Below are positions 13,261 to 30,752 of a stretch of 64,000 bases of DNA, one piece after another. Every line of letters starts with the position of its first letter. Within the stretch, counting starts at the first letter, position 1. The position numbers were made by a program, and so were the translations under genes. The DNA is taken from NCBI GenBank assembly GCA_018675685.1, contig JABGXP010000014.1:17288-81287 (forward strand), given 5' to 3'. Under the pieces are notes generated by a model. That model saw nothing but the letters and a program-made list of their open reading frames with translations. It was not told the origin of the DNA and did not search any database. This DNA is from a bacterium (GTDB lineage: Bacteria > Patescibacteriota > Minisyncoccia > Moranbacterales > DUUL01).

Positions 13261-15648
13261 ATGAAATATTCCTATAAGTGGTTAAAAGAGTTAAGTGGAA
13301 CAAAGAAGAGTTCTAAAGATTTAATGGAGATGGTTGGACTTAAGGGTTTTGAACTAGAAGGCTCCGAAGAATTTGCAAAGAGATATGACAAATTTATAGT
13401 GGGTGAAATTTTAGAATTTCATCAACATCCGAATGCTGATAATTTGAGACTTGTTAGGGTTGGGCTTGGTAAGGAAGAAGAGACCCAAGTTGTCTGTGGT
13501 GCTACTAATTTTGAAGTTTGGGATAAAATCCCCGTTGCTCTTATTGGAGCTGTTGTGCCAAAGAGTAAGATGAAGATTGAAAAGGTTAAACTCAGGGATG
13601 AATTTTCTGAAGGGATGCTTTGTTCGGAGGATGAACTGGAATTAGGAAAAGACAGTGGAGGGATTATGATTTTAGATGAAAAATTAAAAGTAGGAACGCC
13701 AATCGTAGAAGCACTGGAGTTGGATGATGTTATTATCGATTTTGATGTGTTACCAAACCGTGCCCATGATTGCTTGAGTCACATTGGAATGGCACGAGAA
13801 ATCTCTGTAATGGAGGGATCTAAAATGAACGACGCATACATAAAACTTCCGAATGAAATATCCAGTGACGGAATTGAGATTGATATACAAAATCGAGAAG
13901 CTTGCCCAAGGTATATCGGAGCGATTTTGGACAATATAGTTATTGGGCCATCTCCAAGATGGATGCAATTACGCTTAATTGCTAGTGGTATGGAGCCAAT
14001 AAATAATATTGTTGATATCACGAATTATGTAATGCTCGAAACAGGAAGTCCCTTGCATGCATTTGATTTTAATAACATCGCTAATAGTGATGGTCTAGTG
14101 AAAATTATCGTGAGGAATGCAGTAGGTGACGAGAAAATGATGCTATTAGACGGGAAGGAAATTGAGTTAGACGAGAATGATCTTTTAATTACTAATGAAA
14201 AGCAAGGCTTGGCGCTGGCTGGAGTAAAGGGAGGACTGGATTCAGGAATTGCTATCGGAACAAATAAAATTGTCTTAGAGGCTGCAAATTTCAAGGGTTT
14301 TGACGTGAGGAAAACACGGCAAAGACACGCACTTTCAACTGAAGCGCAAATTCGCTTTGAAAAAGGAATTTCACCAAAACTTGCTGAATATGCAGCAGCA
14401 AGAGCGTTGGAACTTTTAGAAGAATATGCAAATGCTAATGTTGTTGCTATTAGCGATGCTGATTTTTCTAGTAACGATTTGCAAAAACAAATCTTTAAAT
14501 TTGATTACACACGAAGACTCTTAGGGGAACACGTTGCAAATGATAAGATGAGTGAAATTATTTCAAATCTTGGATTTAAGATTGAGAGCGAAGACGAGGA
14601 AGGGTTCGAAGCAAGTGTGCCATTTTGGCGCTTGGACATTGAGGGAAGCGCTGATTTAGTTGAAGAGGTTGGAAGAATTGTTGGTTATGGCAATATTAAA
14701 GAGGTTCCAATTATTGAAAATATTGCGCCAGCAAACATCAATAAGTCACGAGTATTTGAATGGGAGTTAATCAGACAAATGAATGGACTTGGATTTGATG
14801 AGGCTAGACTTTATTCTTTTTATAGCAAAAAAGACGCAGAAAACTGTGGAATTGATACCGATCATTTTGAAATAGAGAATCCCTTAAGTGAAGAACTGTC
14901 CTTGATGAGAATCTCTCTTGTCCCTAATTTGCTTAGGAGTGCAAGTGAAAATGCAAAATATCTTGCTGATTTTTCGATTTTTGAATTGGGAAGAGAATAT
15001 CTTAAAAAAGGAGAAGAAAGAGTGGAGCGGAGGAAAATTTCAGGTGTTTATTTTAATATTGCGAAAAAAGATACTGAACTTTTCTATGTCTTAAAAGGTA
15101 AGGTGGCAGCATTATTACAGAAAAACATTGATGGAAAAATTGAGTTTATTGTCCCTTTAAACTGGAGTAATGGAATTTACCATCAAACAAGGACTGCGGA
15201 GATTATTGTTAATGGTGATAAAGTTGGAATCTTGGGGCAGGTTAACAAGGCTGTAGCTAGGAAGTTTAGTATCAAGAAGCCCGTTGTTGTTTTTGAGATT
15301 GATATTGAGAAAATTGCACTGGCAGTGAATAGCGAAAAGATTTTTCAGCAAATTGAAAAATTCCCAGTAGTTCTTCGTGATTTATCAATGTTTATTGACT
15401 CAAAGAGACAATCATCTGAAATTGTGAAGATAATTGAAATAGCTTCAGGCGAAAGCTTGAAGGAGATTGAATTATTTGATGTTTACGATGACAAGGATAA
15501 TAATAGAAAGTCTTTAGCGTTTCATTTAGCGTTTAGCAAGAAAAATGCTACACTTGAAAGTGAAGAAGTCGACATTGTGATGAATAAAATTATCTTAGCC
15601 CTTGAAAAAGAAAAAGTTCAAGTTAGAAAGAAAGAAGAACAAAGTTAA
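13261..15648 (+). CDS. pheT: Phenylalanine--tRNA ligase beta subunit
   Basis: 795 aa; N-terminal tRNA-binding (Myf-like) domain; B3/B4 and B5 regions; C-terminal FDX-ACB-like domain. Confidence 0.95.
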   Translation: MKYSYKWLKELSGTKKSSKDLMEMVGLKGFELEGSEEFAKRYDKFIVGEILEFHQHPNADNLRLVRVGLGKEEETQVVCGATNFEVWDKIPVALIGAVVPKSKMKIEKVKLRDEFSEGMLCSEDELELGKDSGGIMILDEKLKVGTPIVEALELDDVIIDFDVLPNRAHDCLSHIGMAREISVMEGSKMNDAYIKLPNEISSDGIEIDIQNREACPRYIGAILDNIVIGPSPRWMQLRLIASGMEPINNIVDITNYVMLETGSPLHAFDFNNIANSDGLVKIIVRNAVGDEKMMLLDGKEIELDENDLLITNEKQGLALAGVKGGLDSGIAIGTNKIVLEAANFKGFDVRKTRQRHALSTEAQIRFEKGISPKLAEYAAARALELLEEYANANVVAISDADFSSNDLQKQIFKFDYTRRLLGEHVANDKMSEIISNLGFKIESEDEEGFEASVPFWRLDIEGSADLVEEVGRIVGYGNIKEVPIIENIAPANINKSRVFEWELIRQMNGLGFDEARLYSFYSKKDAENCGIDTDHFEIENPLSEELSLMRISLVPNLLRSASENAKYLADFSIFELGREYLKKGEERVERRKISGVYFNIAKKDTELFYVLKGKVAALLQKNIDGKIEFIVPLNWSNGIYHQTRTAEIIVNGDKVGILGQVNKAVARKFSIKKPVVVFEIDIEKIALAVNSEKIFQQIEKFPVVLRDLSMFIDSKRQSSEIVKIIEIASGESLKEIELFDVYDDKDNNRKSLAFHLAFSKKNATLESEEVDIVMNKIILALEKEKVQVRKKEEQS

Positions 15649-15724
15649 AAGTAATTTCTTAAAAAAGACAGCTAGGGGTTCTGCTAAATTTGCAATTAAT
15701 TGTCATTTGAGAAAATTCTCTAAT

Positions 15725-16957
15725 ATGAAAAATAAAAAAAGAAAACACGAAAAAGATTCCTATAACACCATTGAAGAGGCTGTAGCGGCTATCTTCCTTA
15801 ATAAAAAAGATCGAAAAAGAATGTTTTCAGTTCTTTTTTCGCTGTCTTTGGTTGGAGCTTTGATCGTTCTGACTGGGACACACTTTCTCTTGAAACAGCA
15901 AGCGGTGATAGATCAGAATAGCGATATTGATTGGAAGAACCAGCATACATTTGCTAGGCAGTTGAAGGGTAAAACAGAGCTGATCGGTGATGATGAAAGT
16001 CAGGAAAAAAATCAAAGCAGTGAGGTGGATAAAGAGGAATACATTCAAAACAGTTTTAAGAATGATACATTAGAGGTATTTTTCTTAGGAGATTTAATGC
16101 TCGATCGTTACAATAGGGAGCTAATGGAACGAAAGGGAGACGGATGGATGACAGAAAGAGTCCGACATTTATTTTTGGAGAAGGACTTAAATGTTGCAAA
16201 CTTGGAAGGTCCAGTAACAACGGATCAATCTGTTTCTGTGGGATCCGAGGAAGGTGTGAAGAATAACTTTATTTTTACATTTGACCCAGACGGAACTAGA
16301 AACTTTCTTCAAGATAACAAAATTAATCTTGTTAATTTAGGAAATAATCATATTTTGAATTTTGGTAAAAAAGGCTTCACTCAGACGAAAAAATTCCTAT
16401 CTCAAAATAACTTTGGATATTTTGGAGATATCAGTGGTGAAGACGATATTTTTATTGAAAAAAATATCAATGGAATAAAAGTCGCCTTTATTAGTTATAA
16501 TCAATTCAGTGGAAATGGTTTCGATGAAATTAAAAGAAAGGTAGAGGATTTGGAAAAACTAAATGATCTGACTATTGTCTATGCTCATTGGGGGAGTGAA
16601 TATGAGCTAGAGGAGAATAAGCAGCAAAGAGAAGAAGCCCATGAATTTATTGATGCAGGAGCTGACCTTATCATTGGCTCTCATCCACATGTAGTTCAGC
16701 CCGTTGAAATGTATAATAAAAGGGCCATTTTTTATTCTTTAGGCAATTTTATTTTCGATCAATATTTTTCAGAAGATACGATGGTTGGATTGGGAGTGAA
16801 TGTTTCTATAGCAAAAACTAAAGAGCTGGATTTCACTCTTACCCCATTGCAATTGCAAAGAAATGGACAAGTTGATTTTGCAACCGATGAGCAAGAGAAT
16901 AAACTATTGAATAGAATTTTAAAGTCCAAAGAGACTAGAGCTGAAATGTCTTTGTAA
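15725..16957 (+). CDS. CapA/PGA_cap-family metallophosphatase (poly-gamma-glutamate synthesis protein-like), membrane anchored
   Basis: The track ORF overlaps the pheT end; the first ATG past the overlap is 15725, with a later ATG at 15821 also possible. Signal anchor MFSVLFSLSLVGALIVL; CapA motifs FLGDLMLDRY, NLEGP, NLGNNH, YAHWGSEY, GSHPHVVQ, SLGNFIFDQ. Confidence 0.7.
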   Translation: MKNKKRKHEKDSYNTIEEAVAAIFLNKKDRKRMFSVLFSLSLVGALIVLTGTHFLLKQQAVIDQNSDIDWKNQHTFARQLKGKTELIGDDESQEKNQSSEVDKEEYIQNSFKNDTLEVFFLGDLMLDRYNRELMERKGDGWMTERVRHLFLEKDLNVANLEGPVTTDQSVSVGSEEGVKNNFIFTFDPDGTRNFLQDNKINLVNLGNNHILNFGKKGFTQTKKFLSQNNFGYFGDISGEDDIFIEKNINGIKVAFISYNQFSGNGFDEIKRKVEDLEKLNDLTIVYAHWGSEYELEENKQQREEAHEFIDAGADLIIGSHPHVVQPVEMYNKRAIFYSLGNFIFDQYFSEDTMVGLGVNVSIAKTKELDFTLTPLQLQRNGQVDFATDEQENKLLNRILKSKETRAEMSL

Positions 16958-17043
16958 CCCTTGTTTTTATAGCCAGAAAATCGATGACTACAGAATTTTC
17001 TGGGCCATTTTTTTTATAGCAACTCTTATTTTTGATAAAAAAA

Positions 17044-17078
17044 GGTCTTCGCCAGGAGGATTTCCGGCGAAGACCAGG
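17044..17078 (-). terminator. Rho-independent terminator for the minus-strand two-gene cassette
   Basis: Perfect 10-bp stem GGTCTTCGCC/GGCGAAGACC with a short loop; read on the minus strand it is followed by a T-run (plus-strand aaaaaaa just upstream). Confidence 0.6.
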
Positions 17079-17157
17079 TTCGGGACTTCAGATGATGATT
17101 GGTTGTATTGTGTTTGGTGGTTTGTTTTTAAATCCGCCGACCCAAGCTGGCTCCAGT

Positions 17158-17637
17158 CTAGGCTGCGGCGATCTGGATGGTTTCAAACCCAAAGGCGTAG
17201 GCGATGGTAGCAACAATTTCGGCAGGTGCCAACCCTCTTTTTTTACCGGTGCTCACTGCGCCAGGTTCATTATCCCTTGTCGTCTGCAAAAGCAAGATAC
17301 TGTCTACCATGATGACTGTCATAAGGTTTGCGTTGTCAGTCATGGAAAAGTTCGCGACAAAATCATTGGTGGAATTCGTAGCTCCAGCCTCTGGAATGTC
17401 CACGGCCTGTGCATCGGCAACTGTTGTCATCAGCGTATTTAAAGAAGAGTCACTTCCGGATAGAGTGGGATTCGTAAGCCCAGCCCCAACACCGGCAGAG
17501 TCAATGGTAAACATAACAGGCGTGTATGCTTTTGCATCCATTTCATCAATGGAGGACGCGATAGCAACACTAAATGAAGTGATCAGGAAAACAAGTGCGA
17601 TACCAAGAGGCATCAGGAATTTGCCAAGCTTTTTCAT
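17158..17637 (-). CDS. Hypothetical small exported protein (signal peptide), in a GC-richer cassette
   Basis: The ATG at 17637 is preceded by AAAGGAGG with 8-nt spacing. MKKLGKFLMPLGIALVFLITSFSVAIASS is a Sec-type signal peptide. The mature part is Thr/Ser/Ala/Asn-rich. Confidence 0.55.
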   Translation of the reverse strand: MKKLGKFLMPLGIALVFLITSFSVAIASSIDEMDAKAYTPVMFTIDSAGVGAGLTNPTLSGSDSSLNTLMTTVADAQAVDIPEAGATNSTNDFVANFSMTDNANLMTVIMVDSILLLQTTRDNEPGAVSTGKKRGLAPAEIVATIAYAFGFETIQIAAA

Positions 17638-17909
17638 GGGCAAAACCTCCTTTGTTTTCTGTGCGGTTAACATTTTTTGAAAATACGATTGCCAAAAAAA
17701 TACATCATCTCTGAAAAGAACCATTTCTATATAAGCATATTTTTTATTACGCTGTCAAGAAAGTGGCTATTTAAAAAAAGAGGCACTCCCGTCGTGATAT
17801 TTTCGACAAGAGTGCCAACGGTTCTTCGTGACAGTTTCCATTGCGAACCCATGTTCGCTTTTAATATACTTATTCCACTTTACAGTTCAACGTACTATTT
17901 TGCTTCAGA

Positions 17910-18275
17910 TCAGATGTCAATGATCTTGGGCTTTTTTGGACAAATCCAGGCTTCAGACTCACTTTCAGGATCCATTTCAGAATTACCAGGTTCTTGAAGA
18001 AAAAGTTTTCTAACTTGGAATCGTCCCAGATTCACCTCATCTGCTTCAATGACCAAATCTGCATTGCGGATCAAACCAGACCACATCGGCTCACTCAAAT
18101 CATTTTCATCTACAACGCTGTTTACTGTCGAGGTATTTGCCCCATCATTCAACAGGTCGTGTGCAGAAATAGCTTTTGAATCACCAAAAACTTGTTGTGG
18201 TTTGGAGTTGGTGTTACCAACGGAACTAAAATAAAACAGTGTGACTACAATGGCCACGATTAGAGTTATTTTCAA
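17910..18275 (-). CDS. Hypothetical small membrane-anchored/exported protein, first gene of the GC-richer cassette
   Basis: TTG start at 18275 with AAGGAG 8 nt upstream. N-terminal hydrophobic anchor MKITLIVAIVVTLFYF, then an acidic polar domain. Confidence 0.45.
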   Translation of the reverse strand: MKITLIVAIVVTLFYFSSVGNTNSKPQQVFGDSKAISAHDLLNDGANTSTVNSVVDENDLSEPMWSGLIRNADLVIEADEVNLGRFQVRKLFLQEPGNSEMDPESESEAWICPKKPKIIDI

Positions 18276-18435
18276 GGTTGTACTCCTTTCCCTTACTAAA
18301 GGGTCTTAAACCGCCAAATGTGAAGAACCGTTAGATTAATTTAAGCATTACTCTTTGATTTTGTCAATAGTTTATAAAAAAGAAGGATACTATATAATTA
18401 GAAGAGTGAGTTTAAGATGTTTAAAAGTCAAAAGG

Positions 18436-19128
18436 ATGGATTTGCCAAAAATTATTGTTGAGAAGGAACTTGCAGAAAAAGGAGTGAAGATTGTACTTGG
18501 AGTTGATGAGGTAGGTAGGGGCCCGTTAGCAGGACCAGTTGTTGCTGCTGCAGCTTGGGTCAACCCTTTGTTTTTGGAGAAAGATTTTGAGAAAAGAAAC
18601 TTAGTCCGTGATAGTAAGAAATTGAGTGAAAAACAAAGAGCTGAAATTTGTGAATATATCCTAAAGAGTGACGATTTCGTGATAGGGATTGGAGAGGTAT
18701 CTCACAGAACAGTTGATAAAATCAACATATTAAATGCTTCATTACTCGCAATGAAGATTGCAGTTGAAGACGTGATGGAAAAATTTGACCAAACAAATCA
18801 CTTTTCAAAGCAGACTGAAAATCTAAAGAGCTGTTTATTGGTAGATGGGAATCGTGAAATTCCTAAAATGAAAATGAAGCAAAGATTGTTTTCGAAAGGT
18901 GACGCTAGAATTTTTTCAATCGCTGCAGCCTCTATTTGCGCTAAAGTTTATCGCGATGAATTGATGCAAGAGTATCACAAAAAATGGCCTCGTTTTGGTT
19001 TTGATACCCACAAGGGGTATGGAACTAAAAAACATATGGATGCTTTGCAAAAAGTTGGTCTGTGTCAAATCCATAGAAAAAGCTTTGGTCCAGTGAAAGA
19101 TCTACTAACAGAGGCCCTGAAGCCTTAA
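18436..19128 (+). CDS. rnhB: Ribonuclease HII
   Basis: ATG at 18436 (MDLPKII), in frame with the longer track ORF; the GVDEVGRGPLAGPVV motif and the DSK motif. Confidence 0.9.
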   Translation: MDLPKIIVEKELAEKGVKIVLGVDEVGRGPLAGPVVAAAAWVNPLFLEKDFEKRNLVRDSKKLSEKQRAEICEYILKSDDFVIGIGEVSHRTVDKINILNASLLAMKIAVEDVMEKFDQTNHFSKQTENLKSCLLVDGNREIPKMKMKQRLFSKGDARIFSIAAASICAKVYRDELMQEYHKKWPRFGFDTHKGYGTKKHMDALQKVGLCQIHRKSFGPVKDLLTEALKP

Positions 19129-19161: not shown

Positions 19162-19245
19162 GTGCCTCGGGAGAGAATCGAACTCTCACAGTATCACTAC
19201 TACACGATTTTGAGTCGTGCGCGTCTACCAATTCCGCCACCGAGG
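19162..19245 (-). tRNA. tRNA-Leu (anticodon CAA), type II with long variable arm
   Basis: The minus-strand sequence GCCTCGGTGGCGGAATTGGTAGACGCGCACGACTCAAAATCGTGTAGTAGTGATACTGTGAGAGTTCGATTCTCTCCCGAGGCA folds as a cloverleaf: 7-bp acceptor, D arm GCG/CGC, anticodon stem CACGA/TCGTG with loop CTCAAAA. It aligns closely with E. coli tRNA-Leu(CAA). CCA is not encoded. Confidence 0.85.
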
Positions 19246-19414
19246 CATTGCAATCTAAACCTAATAATATACAAGCAGAGTGATTCTGTCAATTCTCCTA
19301 AAAGGTAAGTTTCTAGTATTGCAAAAAGCATTTCTTTGTGTTATTGTGGGTGCAGTCCAAAAGTGACTTTTGGGCATTCTTAGTTATTATGGATAAAAAG
19401 TTTAAGTTAAAGTA

Positions 19415-19627
19415 ATGGCAGTACCAAAGCAAAGGCATAACAGAAGTCGAACACGAAGAAGACGAGGCGGACATGACAAACAAAAAGCTATTTCTTTTGT
19501 TAAATGTTCTAATTGTGAAAAGGAGATCGAAGCACACAAGCTTTGCCCTTTTTGTGGTTCATTTAAAGGCAGAGAGGTTGTAAATATGACAGCCAAAGTA
19601 AAAAAAGTCGAAAAGAGCGATAAATAA
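19415..19627 (+). CDS. rpmF: 50S ribosomal protein L32
   Basis: MAVPKQRHNRSRTRRRRG N-terminus and a CxxC...CxxC zinc ribbon. Confidence 0.9.
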   Translation: MAVPKQRHNRSRTRRRRGGHDKQKAISFVKCSNCEKEIEAHKLCPFCGSFKGREVVNMTAKVKKVEKSDK

Positions 19628-21137: not shown

Positions 21138-21180
21138 TAGTTTGAAAATCAAAACCCAATAGTTTATTTCGAAAGGAAAA

Positions 21181-21216
21181 AGGGATTGTCTTGAAATTAA
21201 GACAATCCCTTTTTAG
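21181..21216. terminator. Bidirectional rho-independent terminator (rnc on plus, small Cys ORF pair on minus)
   Basis: Perfect hairpin GGGATTGTCTT-gaaatt-AAGACAATCCC followed by TTTTT on the plus strand; the minus-strand ORF stop lies 18 nt away. Confidence 0.7.
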
Positions 21217-21233
21217 TATCCAGATAGGGTCTT

Positions 21234-21386
21234 TTACGCAAAGCTTTTCCTTGCTTTGTAGGGGCAGTTATGACATTTACTGCCAAGGGATCCTTTGATT
21301 GCAAGTTTTCTTTTTTCGATGCAATTCGGACTTCCTGGTTCATGAGGGCAGTCCTGTGGTTTTCCATTTGCCATAATGGACTTCAT
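21234..21386 (-). CDS. Hypothetical 50-aa cysteine-motif mini-protein (MKSIMANGKPQDCPHEPGSPNCIEKRKLAIKGSLGSKCHNCPYKARKSFA)
   Basis: Below the 60-aa cutoff of the track. The ATG at 21386 is preceded by GGAGG at 9-nt spacing. Four Cys (C-x9-C ... C-x2-C). Its start overlaps the stop of the upstream ORF as ATGA. Confidence 0.45.
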   Translation of the reverse strand: MKSIMANGKPQDCPHEPGSPNCIEKRKLAIKGSLGSKCHNCPYKARKSFA

Positions 21387-21586
21387 AAATAAAATCCTCC
21401 TTGTTTCCTAGTTTGTTTCTTATTGGGACAGTTGTGACATAAACTATCTTGTAGTTTCATTGCCTGTCGTTGTCTGTTTGTGCAAGCTTTGCCATCTAAC
21501 TTTAGGCAACACCTTCGAATCTTTATTTTTTGACCACGAAGGCGGTTTATTACATTGTGGACAGGGAAAACTGGTGTGACTTTCAT
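21383..21586 (-). CDS. Hypothetical 67-aa cysteine-motif mini-protein, upstream paralog (…SLCHNCPNKKQTRKQGGFYL)
   Basis: The ATG at 21586 is preceded by AAGGA. It shares the CHNCP motif with the downstream mini-ORF. Its TGA stop overlaps the next ATG (translational coupling). Confidence 0.4.
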   Translation of the reverse strand: MKVTPVFPVHNVINRLRGQKIKIRRCCLKLDGKACTNRQRQAMKLQDSLCHNCPNKKQTRKQGGFYL

Positions 21587-21820
21587 TTTGAATCCTTTGT
21601 AAAAGATTTTTGAGGAACTTTTTATTTATTAGATTATAGCACGTTTTTTATTAAATGTAAAGGGTTGAGAATACAATTATTTCATTCAATGGAAAAAGAT
21701 TATTTTCCGTTGTTAAGAGAGGTTTATTGTAGTATAATGCAAGAGTATCAATGAAATTTTGTCTTGTTTGCACAAAATTTTGTTTTATTGAAAATAAGGA
21801 ATAAAAAGAAAGAGAAAAAA

Positions 21821-30436: not shown

Positions 30437-30463
30437 TCTTAAACAGTGTCAATATTTGAAAAT

Positions 30464-30534
30464 TGGGGAATCGCCAAGTGGTAAGGCACTGGTTTCTGGT
30501 ACCAGTATCGGGGGTTCGAATCCCTCTTCCCCAA
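30464..30534 (+). tRNA. tRNA-Gln (anticodon CUG)
   Basis: TGGGGAATCGCCAAGTGGTAAGGCACTGGTTTCTGGTACCAGTATCGGGGGTTCGAATCCCTCTTCCCCAA folds as a cloverleaf: 7-bp acceptor, anticodon stem CTGGT/ACCAG with loop TTCTGGT, T-loop TTCGAAT. It is near-identical in architecture to E. coli tRNA-Gln(CUG). CCA is not encoded. Confidence 0.85.
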
Positions 30535-30752
30535 CAAATAATAATAAAACACCCTTTAATGAGGGTGTTTTATTATTATCCTTGTTTGGAAATGAATTCG
30601 AACGGACAGCAGCAAGCGGAGCGAGCGCCGATGGATGCGATAGCATTCAGCGCTGTCCTGGACAACGAAGGCGAAACGAAGTGGAGACGAGGCGAGAGAA
30701 TCGTATGAAACTGAGAGATTGCTAATAGAAAGATGATATCTTCCCCAACAAA
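30525..30752. repeat. Exact 14-bp direct repeat TCTTCCCCAACAAA at 30525-30538 (tRNA-Gln 3' end) and 30739-30752, bracketing ~200 bp that includes a GC-rich segment
   Basis: Exact match seen in the sequence. The first copy spans the tRNA acceptor 3' strand plus discriminator, as in tRNA-associated att sites. Confidence 0.6.
30544..30572 (+). terminator. Hairpin terminator after tRNA-Gln
   Basis: AACACCCT-ttaatg-AGGGTGTT followed by TTATTATT. Confidence 0.55.

Follow-up and report, generated by a model that had tools for sequence, protein, structure and literature searches.

The gap between the housekeeping genes capA and rnhB, in the 64-kb stretch of bacterial DNA analysed here (the window), carries two small genes on the minus strand, called p159 (open reading frame, ORF, 17158-17637) and p121 (ORF 17910-18275) below. 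Judged by its sequence, p159 is a real protein-coding gene with a Sec-type signal peptide, and its product is predicted to be exported. It is an inherited, lineage-specific gene, and its recent horizontal transfer is not supported. The explanation preferred for the locus, held with somewhat better than even confidence, is that the capA-rnhB gap is a small hot spot of lineage-restricted genes on the opposite strand, with p159 as an inherited resident. A preliminary description of this DNA had proposed a recent, horizontally acquired cassette. That proposal was not borne out: there are orthologues in the same gap of a related species, the GC content at third codon positions (GC3) is raised in both species, no signature of mobility was seen and no donor was found.

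The organism is an AT-rich bacterium of the candidate phyla radiation (CPR, Patescibacteria), Moraniibacteriota-like, and the overall GC content of the window is 0.361. The gap is flanked by pheS, pheT and capA on one side and by rnhB, rpmF, nusB, rnc and smc on the other; the capA product matches the PGA_cap profile (E 7e-55) and the rnhB product RNase_HII (E 3e-36). Most window ORFs of at least 120 amino acids (aa) lie on the plus strand (48 of 54). The sampled population is nearly clonal: assemblies of the window species are 99.95-100% identical over 12 kb, and the sequence of 16960-18354 is identical or nearly so across samples.

The p159 gene and its product

Both minus-strand ORFs of the preliminary description are present, and the strong Shine-Dalgarno (SD) sequences and single TTG start that it claimed were also found. 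The SD of p159 (AAAGGAGG, 17646-17653) lies 8 nucleotides (nt) before its ATG, and that of p121 (AAAGGAG, 18283-18289) lies 7 nt before its TTG. An exhaustive phmmer search of 1.84 billion representative proteins returned one true homologue of p159, the 170-aa protein P0009 (E 1.4e-4), which is about 36-40% identical to it along the whole length. Two further matches, P0007 and P0008, were repetitive false positives and were discarded on inspection. P0009 is encoded on two Logan contigs of one related species (L086 and L087), in the gene order smc, rnc, nusB, rpmF, rnhB, a 148-aa ORF, P0009, a 167-aa ORF, capA, pheT. The gene occupies the same capA-rnhB gap in the same orientation as p159, beside an orthologue of p121. 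The p159 promoter, the start of the 5' untranslated region (UTR), the SD, the ATG, the 3'UTR and the terminator can all be aligned between the window and L086.

The p159 frame is open in both species. In the window its 159 codons are fully open in only 2e-4 of shuffles, and the homologous 170-codon frame is open in L086. Between p159 and P0009 the conserved nucleotide blocks are shifted by -3, +45 and +30 nt, each a multiple of 3. Since the frame is open in two species, the indels keep to multiples of three and the SD, ATG and signal peptide are conserved, p159 is read as coding. Several public annotations carry a 188-aa version (P0006) that starts at the ATG at 17724. Its extension (17638-17724) runs over the inferred 5'UTR and has no conserved counterpart in L086; this annotation is an upstream over-extension, and the conserved start is the ATG at 17637.

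The preliminary description had read a Sec signal peptide ending in AIASS, and a manual reading of the p159 N-terminus agrees with it. The predicted signal peptide comprises residues 1-27 (17557-17637), that is, MKKLGK followed by a hydrophobic core of 21 residues (FLMPLGIALVFLITSFSV), with A-I-A|SS at the predicted cut after Ala27. P0009 carries S-T-A|T at the equivalent position (residue 27), and its first 17 residues are identical to those of p159 at 16 of 17 positions. These features (a charged n-region, an h-region, small residues at -3 and -1) are those expected for Sec and signal peptidase I, with the caveat that by manual reading a signal anchor is the alternative. Each of p159 and p121 has one hydrophobic segment only, at the N-terminus, which in p121 agrees with the membrane anchor claimed earlier.

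The mature p159 protein would have 132 aa. It is acidic (15 D+E versus 5 K+R), rich in Ala, Thr, Ser, Asp, Val and Asn, and without Cys or Trp. No lipobox of bacterial lipoproteins was found: p159 is free of cysteine and p121 has a single Cys at residue 112. Neither protein has the class III signal of type IV pilins and pseudopilins (G|F/M-T/S-L-x-E). The C-termini, ...PAEIVATIAYAFGFETIQIAAA and ...PAEIAANTSLVDDFYAVGAVLQA, hold no sortase or exosortase signal (LPXTG, PEP-CTERM, PGF-CTERM and others). They contain acidic residues, no basic tail and no 19-residue hydrophobic window above 1.6. An internal duplication in mature p159 was considered and did not reach significance when compared with shuffles (p 0.19 and 0.38); a short AG(L/A)TN(P/S) motif is all that recurs.

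Neither protein had been recognised as a member of a known family in the preliminary description, and the searches agree. Pfam, NCBIfam, PHROGs, PADLOC and the sequences of the PDB gave no family for p159, p121, P0009, the 148-aa and 167-aa proteins of L086 or a 91-aa protein of the third species treated below; the best profile matches (E>=0.008) were far below the cut-offs. A word-indexed search of 5.8 billion proteins, with single sequences and with a profile of p159 and P0009, found only the proteins' own clusters, which for p159 and p121 are drawn from many assemblies of essentially one clonal population. The same profile, run against metagenome contigs and viral contigs, and tblastn searches of phages and plasmids uncovered no further relative. 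A scan of metagenomes with the RNase HII profile for closer relatives returned only loci of at most 45% identity. A literature search for related CPR surface proteins found nothing relevant.

Base composition, silent sites and synteny

The GC content of the window reaches its maximum at 17001-17600 (0.482, in the 500-nt windows starting at 17001 and 17101), about 4 standard deviations (sd) above the mean (0.361, sd 0.030). The anomaly is limited to 17.0-17.64 kb, that is, to p159 (0.477) and its 3'UTR with the terminator (0.49). A GC shift over 16.96-18.35 kb had been reported previously; it holds for p159 and its 3'UTR, but not for the p159 5'UTR (0.33), and p121 is only mildly raised (about 0.40). 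The GC3 of p159 is 0.481 versus 0.300±0.024 in 52 other ORFs (maximum 0.348; z 7.7), its GC at second positions (GC2) is also raised (z 3.3) and that at first positions is normal. The anomaly is not one of amino-acid composition alone. Codons such as ACG, GGG and CCC are used, and the synonymous-codon log-likelihood of p159 under window usage (-1.32 versus -1.007±0.041) is about 7.7 sd below that of window genes. In p121 the effect is marginal (GC3 0.358, z 2.5). When 17.0-18.3 kb is checked against its flanks, p159 is strongly atypical, so an objection to the cassette from ordinary composition fails. Atypical composition and codon usage, as used to recognise genomic islands, are thus found for p159 and marginally for p121.

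The raised GC3 is not peculiar to the window. P0009 has a GC3 of 0.497 versus 0.32-0.35 in its L086 neighbours, and the p121 orthologue of L086 is also raised (0.47). Strand bias was ruled out as a source, as the remaining minus-strand genes of the window have a GC3 of 0.26-0.34. Translational selection was weakened as a source: L32, GAPDH and an RRM protein, the comparison genes, show no rise, and p159 makes use of the codons ACG, GGG and CCC named above. The GC3 of p159 is probably due to nucleotide constraints on the mRNA (the clamp, hairpins and frozen sites described below) or to biased repair or recombination, and not to a recent transfer that has yet to ameliorate.

The divergence between p159 and P0009 is very uneven. 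The signal peptide and three short blocks are conserved, and the remainder has diverged almost past alignment. The signal-peptide region contains a perfect match of 24 nt (CCTGATGCCTCTTGGTATCGCACT), and the blocks GGGCTTACGAATCCCA, GAGGCTGGA..TACGAATTCC and ACCTGCCGAAATTG are kept to the nucleotide. Where residues are identical, 44 of 57 also have identical codons (0.77; 20 of 23 in runs of at least 4), compared with 0.53 in seven housekeeping genes (Fisher p 0.001). Four-fold degenerate third positions are identical in 22 of 28 cases, compared with 0.36-0.56 in housekeeping genes. In both respects p121 behaves like the housekeeping genes (identical codons 0.57, four-fold sites 0.42). The conserved blocks of p159 are either constrained at the nucleotide level or younger than the genomes.

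The second of these options belongs to a rather unlikely alternative, in which p159 is a hypervariable gene that has moved laterally between related CPR lineages since they split (for example by natural transformation), with the mature domain under diversifying selection, silent sites younger than the genomes and a GC3 that has yet to ameliorate. It would account for the four-fold sites of conserved codons (79% identical versus about 42% in housekeeping genes) and for a conserved signal peptide next to a highly diverged mature part. It would also account for codon positions 1, 2 and 3 that differ almost equally (0.38, 0.38 and 0.47; in housekeeping genes 0.09-0.29, 0.03-0.17 and 0.29-0.53). 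The locus and the p121 neighbour are, however, the same in both species, the flanks show no matching drop in silent divergence, and no pool of alleles or donor appeared among the 5.8 and 1.84 billion proteins. The aligned non-coding parts of the p159 module, about 74-75% identical between the window and L086, might seem young as well. Other intergenic regions are 71-89% identical, which implies that nucleotide-level constraint on regulatory sequence is common here, so the roughly 75% identity of the p159 UTRs is unusable as a clock and is not evidence of youth.

The proposal of the preliminary description, a two-gene cassette of secreted effectors or surface proteins recently acquired from a GC-richer donor, is unlikely. 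The GC3 and codon usage of p159 favour it, as do the unit's own promoter and terminator. So does the gap of L006, a metagenome-assembled genome (MAG) of Candidatus Moraniibacteriota and the closest GTDB species representative. L006 retains pheT, capA, rnhB, rpmF, nusB and rnc, and its gap of about 500 bp contains one minus-strand ORF (91 aa, with an N-terminal hydrophobic segment) and no trace of p159. A double-hairpin terminator module follows about 20 nt after the L006 capA stop; in the window and L086 the p159 unit is found between capA and this module. The capA-rnhB synteny without p159 that the preliminary description had suggested looking for therefore exists in L006, but L086 and L087 carry both genes in that gap. 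A shared position with clear family assignments had been named as evidence against a cassette: the position is shared with L086/L087, and no family was assigned.

Several findings speak against a recent cassette. An orthologue occupies this locus in L086/L087 too, in a species with housekeeping proteins only about 73% identical to those of the window and with third codon positions of housekeeping genes that differ at 0.44-0.53; this excludes a recent import into the window genome alone. The equally raised GC3 of P0009 argues that this is not the relic of an import before the split, which should have ameliorated. The genes p121 and p159 form separate units with unlike behaviour at silent sites. 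No integrase, transposase, flanking repeat or tRNA/attachment junction was seen near p159 and p121 (a tRNA-Leu lies beyond rnhB, not at a junction), and no homologue was found in other lineages or in the phage, plasmid and viral-contig collections. The p159 gene is absent in L006 and present in L086/L087, and no homologue was found outside the window species and the L086 species. A diversity-generating retroelement (DGR), repeat or paralogue origin was ruled out within the 64 kb, as no second copy of any part of 16960-18354 exists there.

The capA-rnhB gap thus holds one orphan gene in L006, two in the window and three in L086. The third in L086 (8109-8612, plus strand) is a 167-aa orphan between P0009 and capA with no signal peptide, a C-terminal CPHC motif, no family match and no counterpart in the window. 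The pooled identity of six housekeeping proteins is 0.734 between window and L086, 0.711 between window and L006, and 0.707 between L086 and L006. By these values the split of the three species is nearly a trichotomy, L006 lying marginally outside, and a single gain in the ancestor of the window and L086 species and a single clean loss in L006 are therefore equally parsimonious. The p159 gene may have arisen by an ancient transfer, which the data neither show nor exclude, or de novo.

Transcription units and predicted mRNA structures

The two genes had been described as a single unit closed by one terminator. The closing terminator is present: a G+C-rich stem on the minus strand (17044-17075, 12 pairs of which 8 are G-C, -23.1 kcal/mol) followed by a T-run (the whole element 17037-17075). 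It has a counterpart at the matching position of L086, with 3 compensatory pairs. The single unit was not upheld. A second minus-strand hairpin with a T-run (hairpin B, 17773-17816; stem 17782-17816, -22.4 kcal/mol) lies between the genes. It is kept in the window, L006 and L086 with compensatory changes in 5 of 12 pairs, and we read it as the terminator of p121. A promoter-like site for p159 (TTGACA, 18 nt, TGn-TTATAT; 17729-17758, minus strand) follows it, with a counterpart in L086 (TTGATA, 17 nt, TGn-TTATAT); a stricter consensus promoter scan did not list the window site. The p121 terminator and the separate p159 promoter-like site imply two separate transcription units.

Hairpin B is part of a module of convergent terminators found in all three species (window 17773-17868; L006 7262-7345; L086 6975-7075), in which it is followed by an invariant ATTTCCAnTGC and by a plus-strand hairpin with a T-run (hairpin A, 17843-17868). 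Hairpin A is terminator-like, and in L006 the module stands directly 3' of capA. In the window a candidate capA terminator of its own, an AT-rich 9-bp hairpin (CCAGAAAAU...AUUUUCUGG) followed by T8, can be proposed on the plus strand at 16973-17016 (-9.8 kcal/mol).

The p121 unit (CDS 17910-18275, minus strand, 121 aa) has its own promoter-like site (TTGACA-18-TAAATT, 18338-18367), back to back with that of rnhB; together with the SD its 5' signals span 18283-18367. The orthologue is the 148-aa ORF of L086, with 34-37% identity and shared residues that include ISA.DLL, MW..L..NADL, QEP and WI. Its start (GGAAAGGAG-N7-TTG) conserves both the TTG and the SD. The 91-aa ORF of L006 shows no detectable similarity to p121; orthology was rejected, and the ORF is a positional analogue only.

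The p159 transcript would begin with a 5'UTR of about 90 nt (17638-17728), the start being set from the promoter-like site, and would end in a C/A-rich 3'UTR (17076-17157). The two ends are predicted to pair. The 5' arm UGGUUCUUUUCAGAGAUGAUG (17703-17723) and the 3' arm CAAUCAUCAUCUGAAGUCCCGAACC (17077-17101) form a duplex, the clamp, of -25.1 kcal/mol in the window (-12.4±3.1 in shuffles, p about 0.001) and of -19.9 kcal/mol in L086 (p 0.024). Nothing in the entire p159 transcript pairs better with the 5' end than the 3' arm does, the first 40 nt pair there in both species, and the clamp was recovered in minimum free energy (MFE) folds and by RNAalifold.

Two predicted hairpins within the coding sequence share a 9-nt loop, (C/G)(U/C)UACGAAU, closed by GGG/CCC or GGA/UCC. 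The first (GGG-CUUACGAAU-CCC, 17467-17481) encodes G-L-T-N-P and caps a longer stem that covaries (window UGGGG/CUCUA, L086 UGUGU/ACACA). The second (GGA-GCUACGAAU-UCC, 17371-17385) encodes the G-A-T-N-S of the second AG(L/A)TN(P/S) motif, and in L086 (GGA-CUUACGAAU-UCC) differs by one loop substitution. Over the clamp, both hairpins and the terminator, each of the 40 selected pairs forms in both species; 7 are changed on both sides, compared with 0-1 in slid controls. These structures are leads that could explain the frozen synonymous sites and the maintained GC content. The element GGR-(C/G)(U/C)UACGAAU-YCC distantly resembles a tRNA T-arm, and the one further near-match within the window, with 2 mismatches, falls in the T-arm of tRNA-Gln (30510-30524); the likeness is probably coincidental. 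Compared with the window, the P0009 5'UTR is longer by an insertion of about 80 nt (L086 7165-7245), with the hairpin CCACGUUGCGUUACGUGG, which contributes to the folding z-score of the L086 transcript.

One could go further and propose that the p159 transcript is a dual-function RNA, a GC-rich mRNA clamped end to end, in which the CUUACGAAU-loop hairpins and the frozen synonymous sites mark a role at the RNA level (a binding platform, stability or localisation), atop a diversifying exported host-contact protein. This is improbable. A mainly structured RNA, non-coding or dual-function, with paired ends and the 9-nt hairpin loops as its functional elements and with the ORF incidental or secondary, is less probable still. 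Structured RNAs typically stand out as GC-rich islands when the genome is AT-rich, and p159 forms such an island. Nucleotide-level blocks with frozen synonymous sites, the end pairing in both species, the two hairpins with a covarying first stem and the L086 folding z-score (-5.8) would fit as well. Against this stand the open frame of 159 or 170 codons, the three inter-block indels in multiples of 3, and the conserved SD, ATG and n-h-c signal peptide. The window z-score is only -1.65, and Gly (GGN) and Pro/Ser (CCN/UCC) codons pair by nature, so that GG/CC stems come for free. Covariance models of Rfam 15 gave no family match for 16900-18450 even at E<=10, with nothing at E<0.2 and nothing close to a gathering score; over the whole window they found two tRNAs only.

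A Sec-dependent bacteriocin (p159) with an adjacent membrane immunity protein (p121) is highly improbable. A small exported protein does adjoin a small anchored one, and both are lineage-specific and fast-evolving. However, mature p159 is large for this role, strongly acidic and without Cys, the two genes are not co-transcribed, no bacteriocin, immunity or defence model matched, and L006 has the positional analogue of p121 without p159. There is almost no chance that the plus-strand ORFs of the preliminary description (17032-17442 and 17204-17680, both present) are the real genes and the minus-strand ORF their shadow: they are long (136 and 158 aa) and L086 has an antisense ORF (115 aa) in the same relative frame, but they lack a conserved start or SD, every conserved signal (promoter, SD, signal peptide, terminator) suits a gene on the minus strand, the L086 antisense ORF stops 7 nt past the P0009 start, and the openness of the antisense frames (long ORFs occupy 3 of the 6 frames over p159) follows from the scarcity in p159 of Tyr, His and Gln residues and of TTA, CTA and TCA codons.

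Origin, role and neighbourhood

Under the preferred explanation of a small hot spot of lineage-restricted genes, the gap would contain two independent transcription units. The p159 unit would be a self-contained module of promoter-like site, 5'UTR of about 90 nt, SD, ORF, 3'UTR of about 80 nt and terminator, resident here at least since the window and L086 species shared an ancestor. Its mRNA, possibly stabilised, would yield a small acidic protein that is exported by Sec, cut after Ala27, and released or surface-associated. The high GC and GC3 would be intrinsic to p159 and kept in both species, through constraints on the mRNA or through locus-specific biased repair or recombination. The p121 unit, with its own conserved TTG start and terminator, would yield a small, rapidly evolving protein that its N-terminal hydrophobic helix anchors in the membrane, with an extracytoplasmic tail.

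Several points weigh against this explanation. The call of a signal peptide is a heuristic, manual one. AlphaFold2 gave a mean pLDDT of 35.9 for p159 (from an alignment of 2 sequences) and 49.1 for p121 (alone), with only the N-terminal helices confident. The RNA structures were derived from the same two sequences in which they were counted, which biases the pair counts upwards, and the folding z-score of the window transcript (-1.65) is weak. The raised GC3 and low silent divergence in the blocks also fit a later lateral exchange between lineages. The absence of p159 from L006, combined with the near-trichotomy, leaves gain versus loss unpolarised.

CPR bacteria are presumed to grow attached to the cells of a host. 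Around half of the genes in this group lack an assigned function, and among candidates for contact with the host, small proteins that are exported rank high. From its export, composition and pattern of divergence a role in the envelope or in host contact is inferred for p159. The most likely role, a tentative proposal somewhat short of an even chance, is that of an episymbiont's variable protein of the cell envelope or of host contact. The presumed episymbiotic way of life of the organism and the shifting content of the gap would fit this as well.

The two genes resemble other CPR orphans that encode small exported or membrane proteins: they belong to no family, are small, have an N-terminal signal or anchor, diverge fast, and occupy a gap whose content varies between species. 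In addition p159 shows the cross-species GC3 anomaly and frozen synonymous sites, whereas ordinary orphans are usually genome-like or AT-richer. In the Vlp/Vsa genes of Mycoplasma, which are reduced-genome, host-associated bacteria, a conserved 5' region and signal peptide likewise precede a divergent Ser/Thr/Ala-rich mature part. The likeness is one of pattern only: p159 has no lipobox Cys, it is single-copy without paralogues or phase-variation repeats in the window, and its conservation is between species and not between paralogues.

Pairing of 5' and 3' ends occurs in other bacterial mRNAs, such as the fold-back (fbi) element of hok mRNA and the interaction between the 3'UTR and 5'UTR of Staphylococcus icaR. 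The predicted p159 duplex is similarly long-range, joining the 5' end to the 3'UTR just before the terminator in two species. It differs in that the pairing spares the SD and start codon and what is encoded is an exported protein of 159 aa instead of a small toxin or regulator; there is no sequence homology, and the duplex is a prediction from sequence. With horizontally acquired islets p159 shares atypical GC and codons, an autonomous promoter and terminator, and absence in one syntenic relative. Unlike them it has no integrase, tRNA junction, direct repeats or donor homologues, and both locus and composition are shared at about 73% protein identity.

The neighbourhood of the gap has further features. 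A capA ORF that starts at TTG 15602 (extension 15602-15724) would overlap pheT by 47 nt and would add a Lys-rich N-terminus. This N-terminus is absent from the contig gene calls (410 aa) and from relatives, and ATG 15725 is the likelier start. A tRNA-Leu(CAA) lies at 19162-19246 (minus strand), between rnhB and rpmF. Spurious antisense ORFs were found over rpmF (19313-19537, GC3 0.49) and over tRNA-Gln (30456-30725); high GC3 values in short ORFs here can therefore be artefacts of the wrong strand or of RNA genes. The rnc-smc gap (window 21138-21820; L086 2742-3513) has 680 nt without a long ORF and is 65-68% identical between both species. Small ORFs of 67 and 50 aa lie on its minus strand; a '..KCHNCP..' motif is common to them and to ORFs of L086, and no Rfam match was found. 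This gap could be a second islet of opposite-strand genes, for tiny proteins with a Cys motif, or an unrecognised RNA.

At present these results are an annotation refinement and not a discovery, and the lead on RNA constraint is the only part with potential beyond that. The locus represents a clean, well-delimited orphan protein family of two members, in a syntenic hot spot that varies among three related species. It also carries a caution for the search for genomic islands: a GC3 anomaly of more than 7 sd is common to orthologues here and by itself is no proof of recent transfer. If the mRNA-level features are true, p159 would be a coding gene whose composition is shaped by constraint on its RNA, which is unusual. 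A dual constraint, if true, would explain why an AT-rich genome has kept a GC-rich gene in two species.

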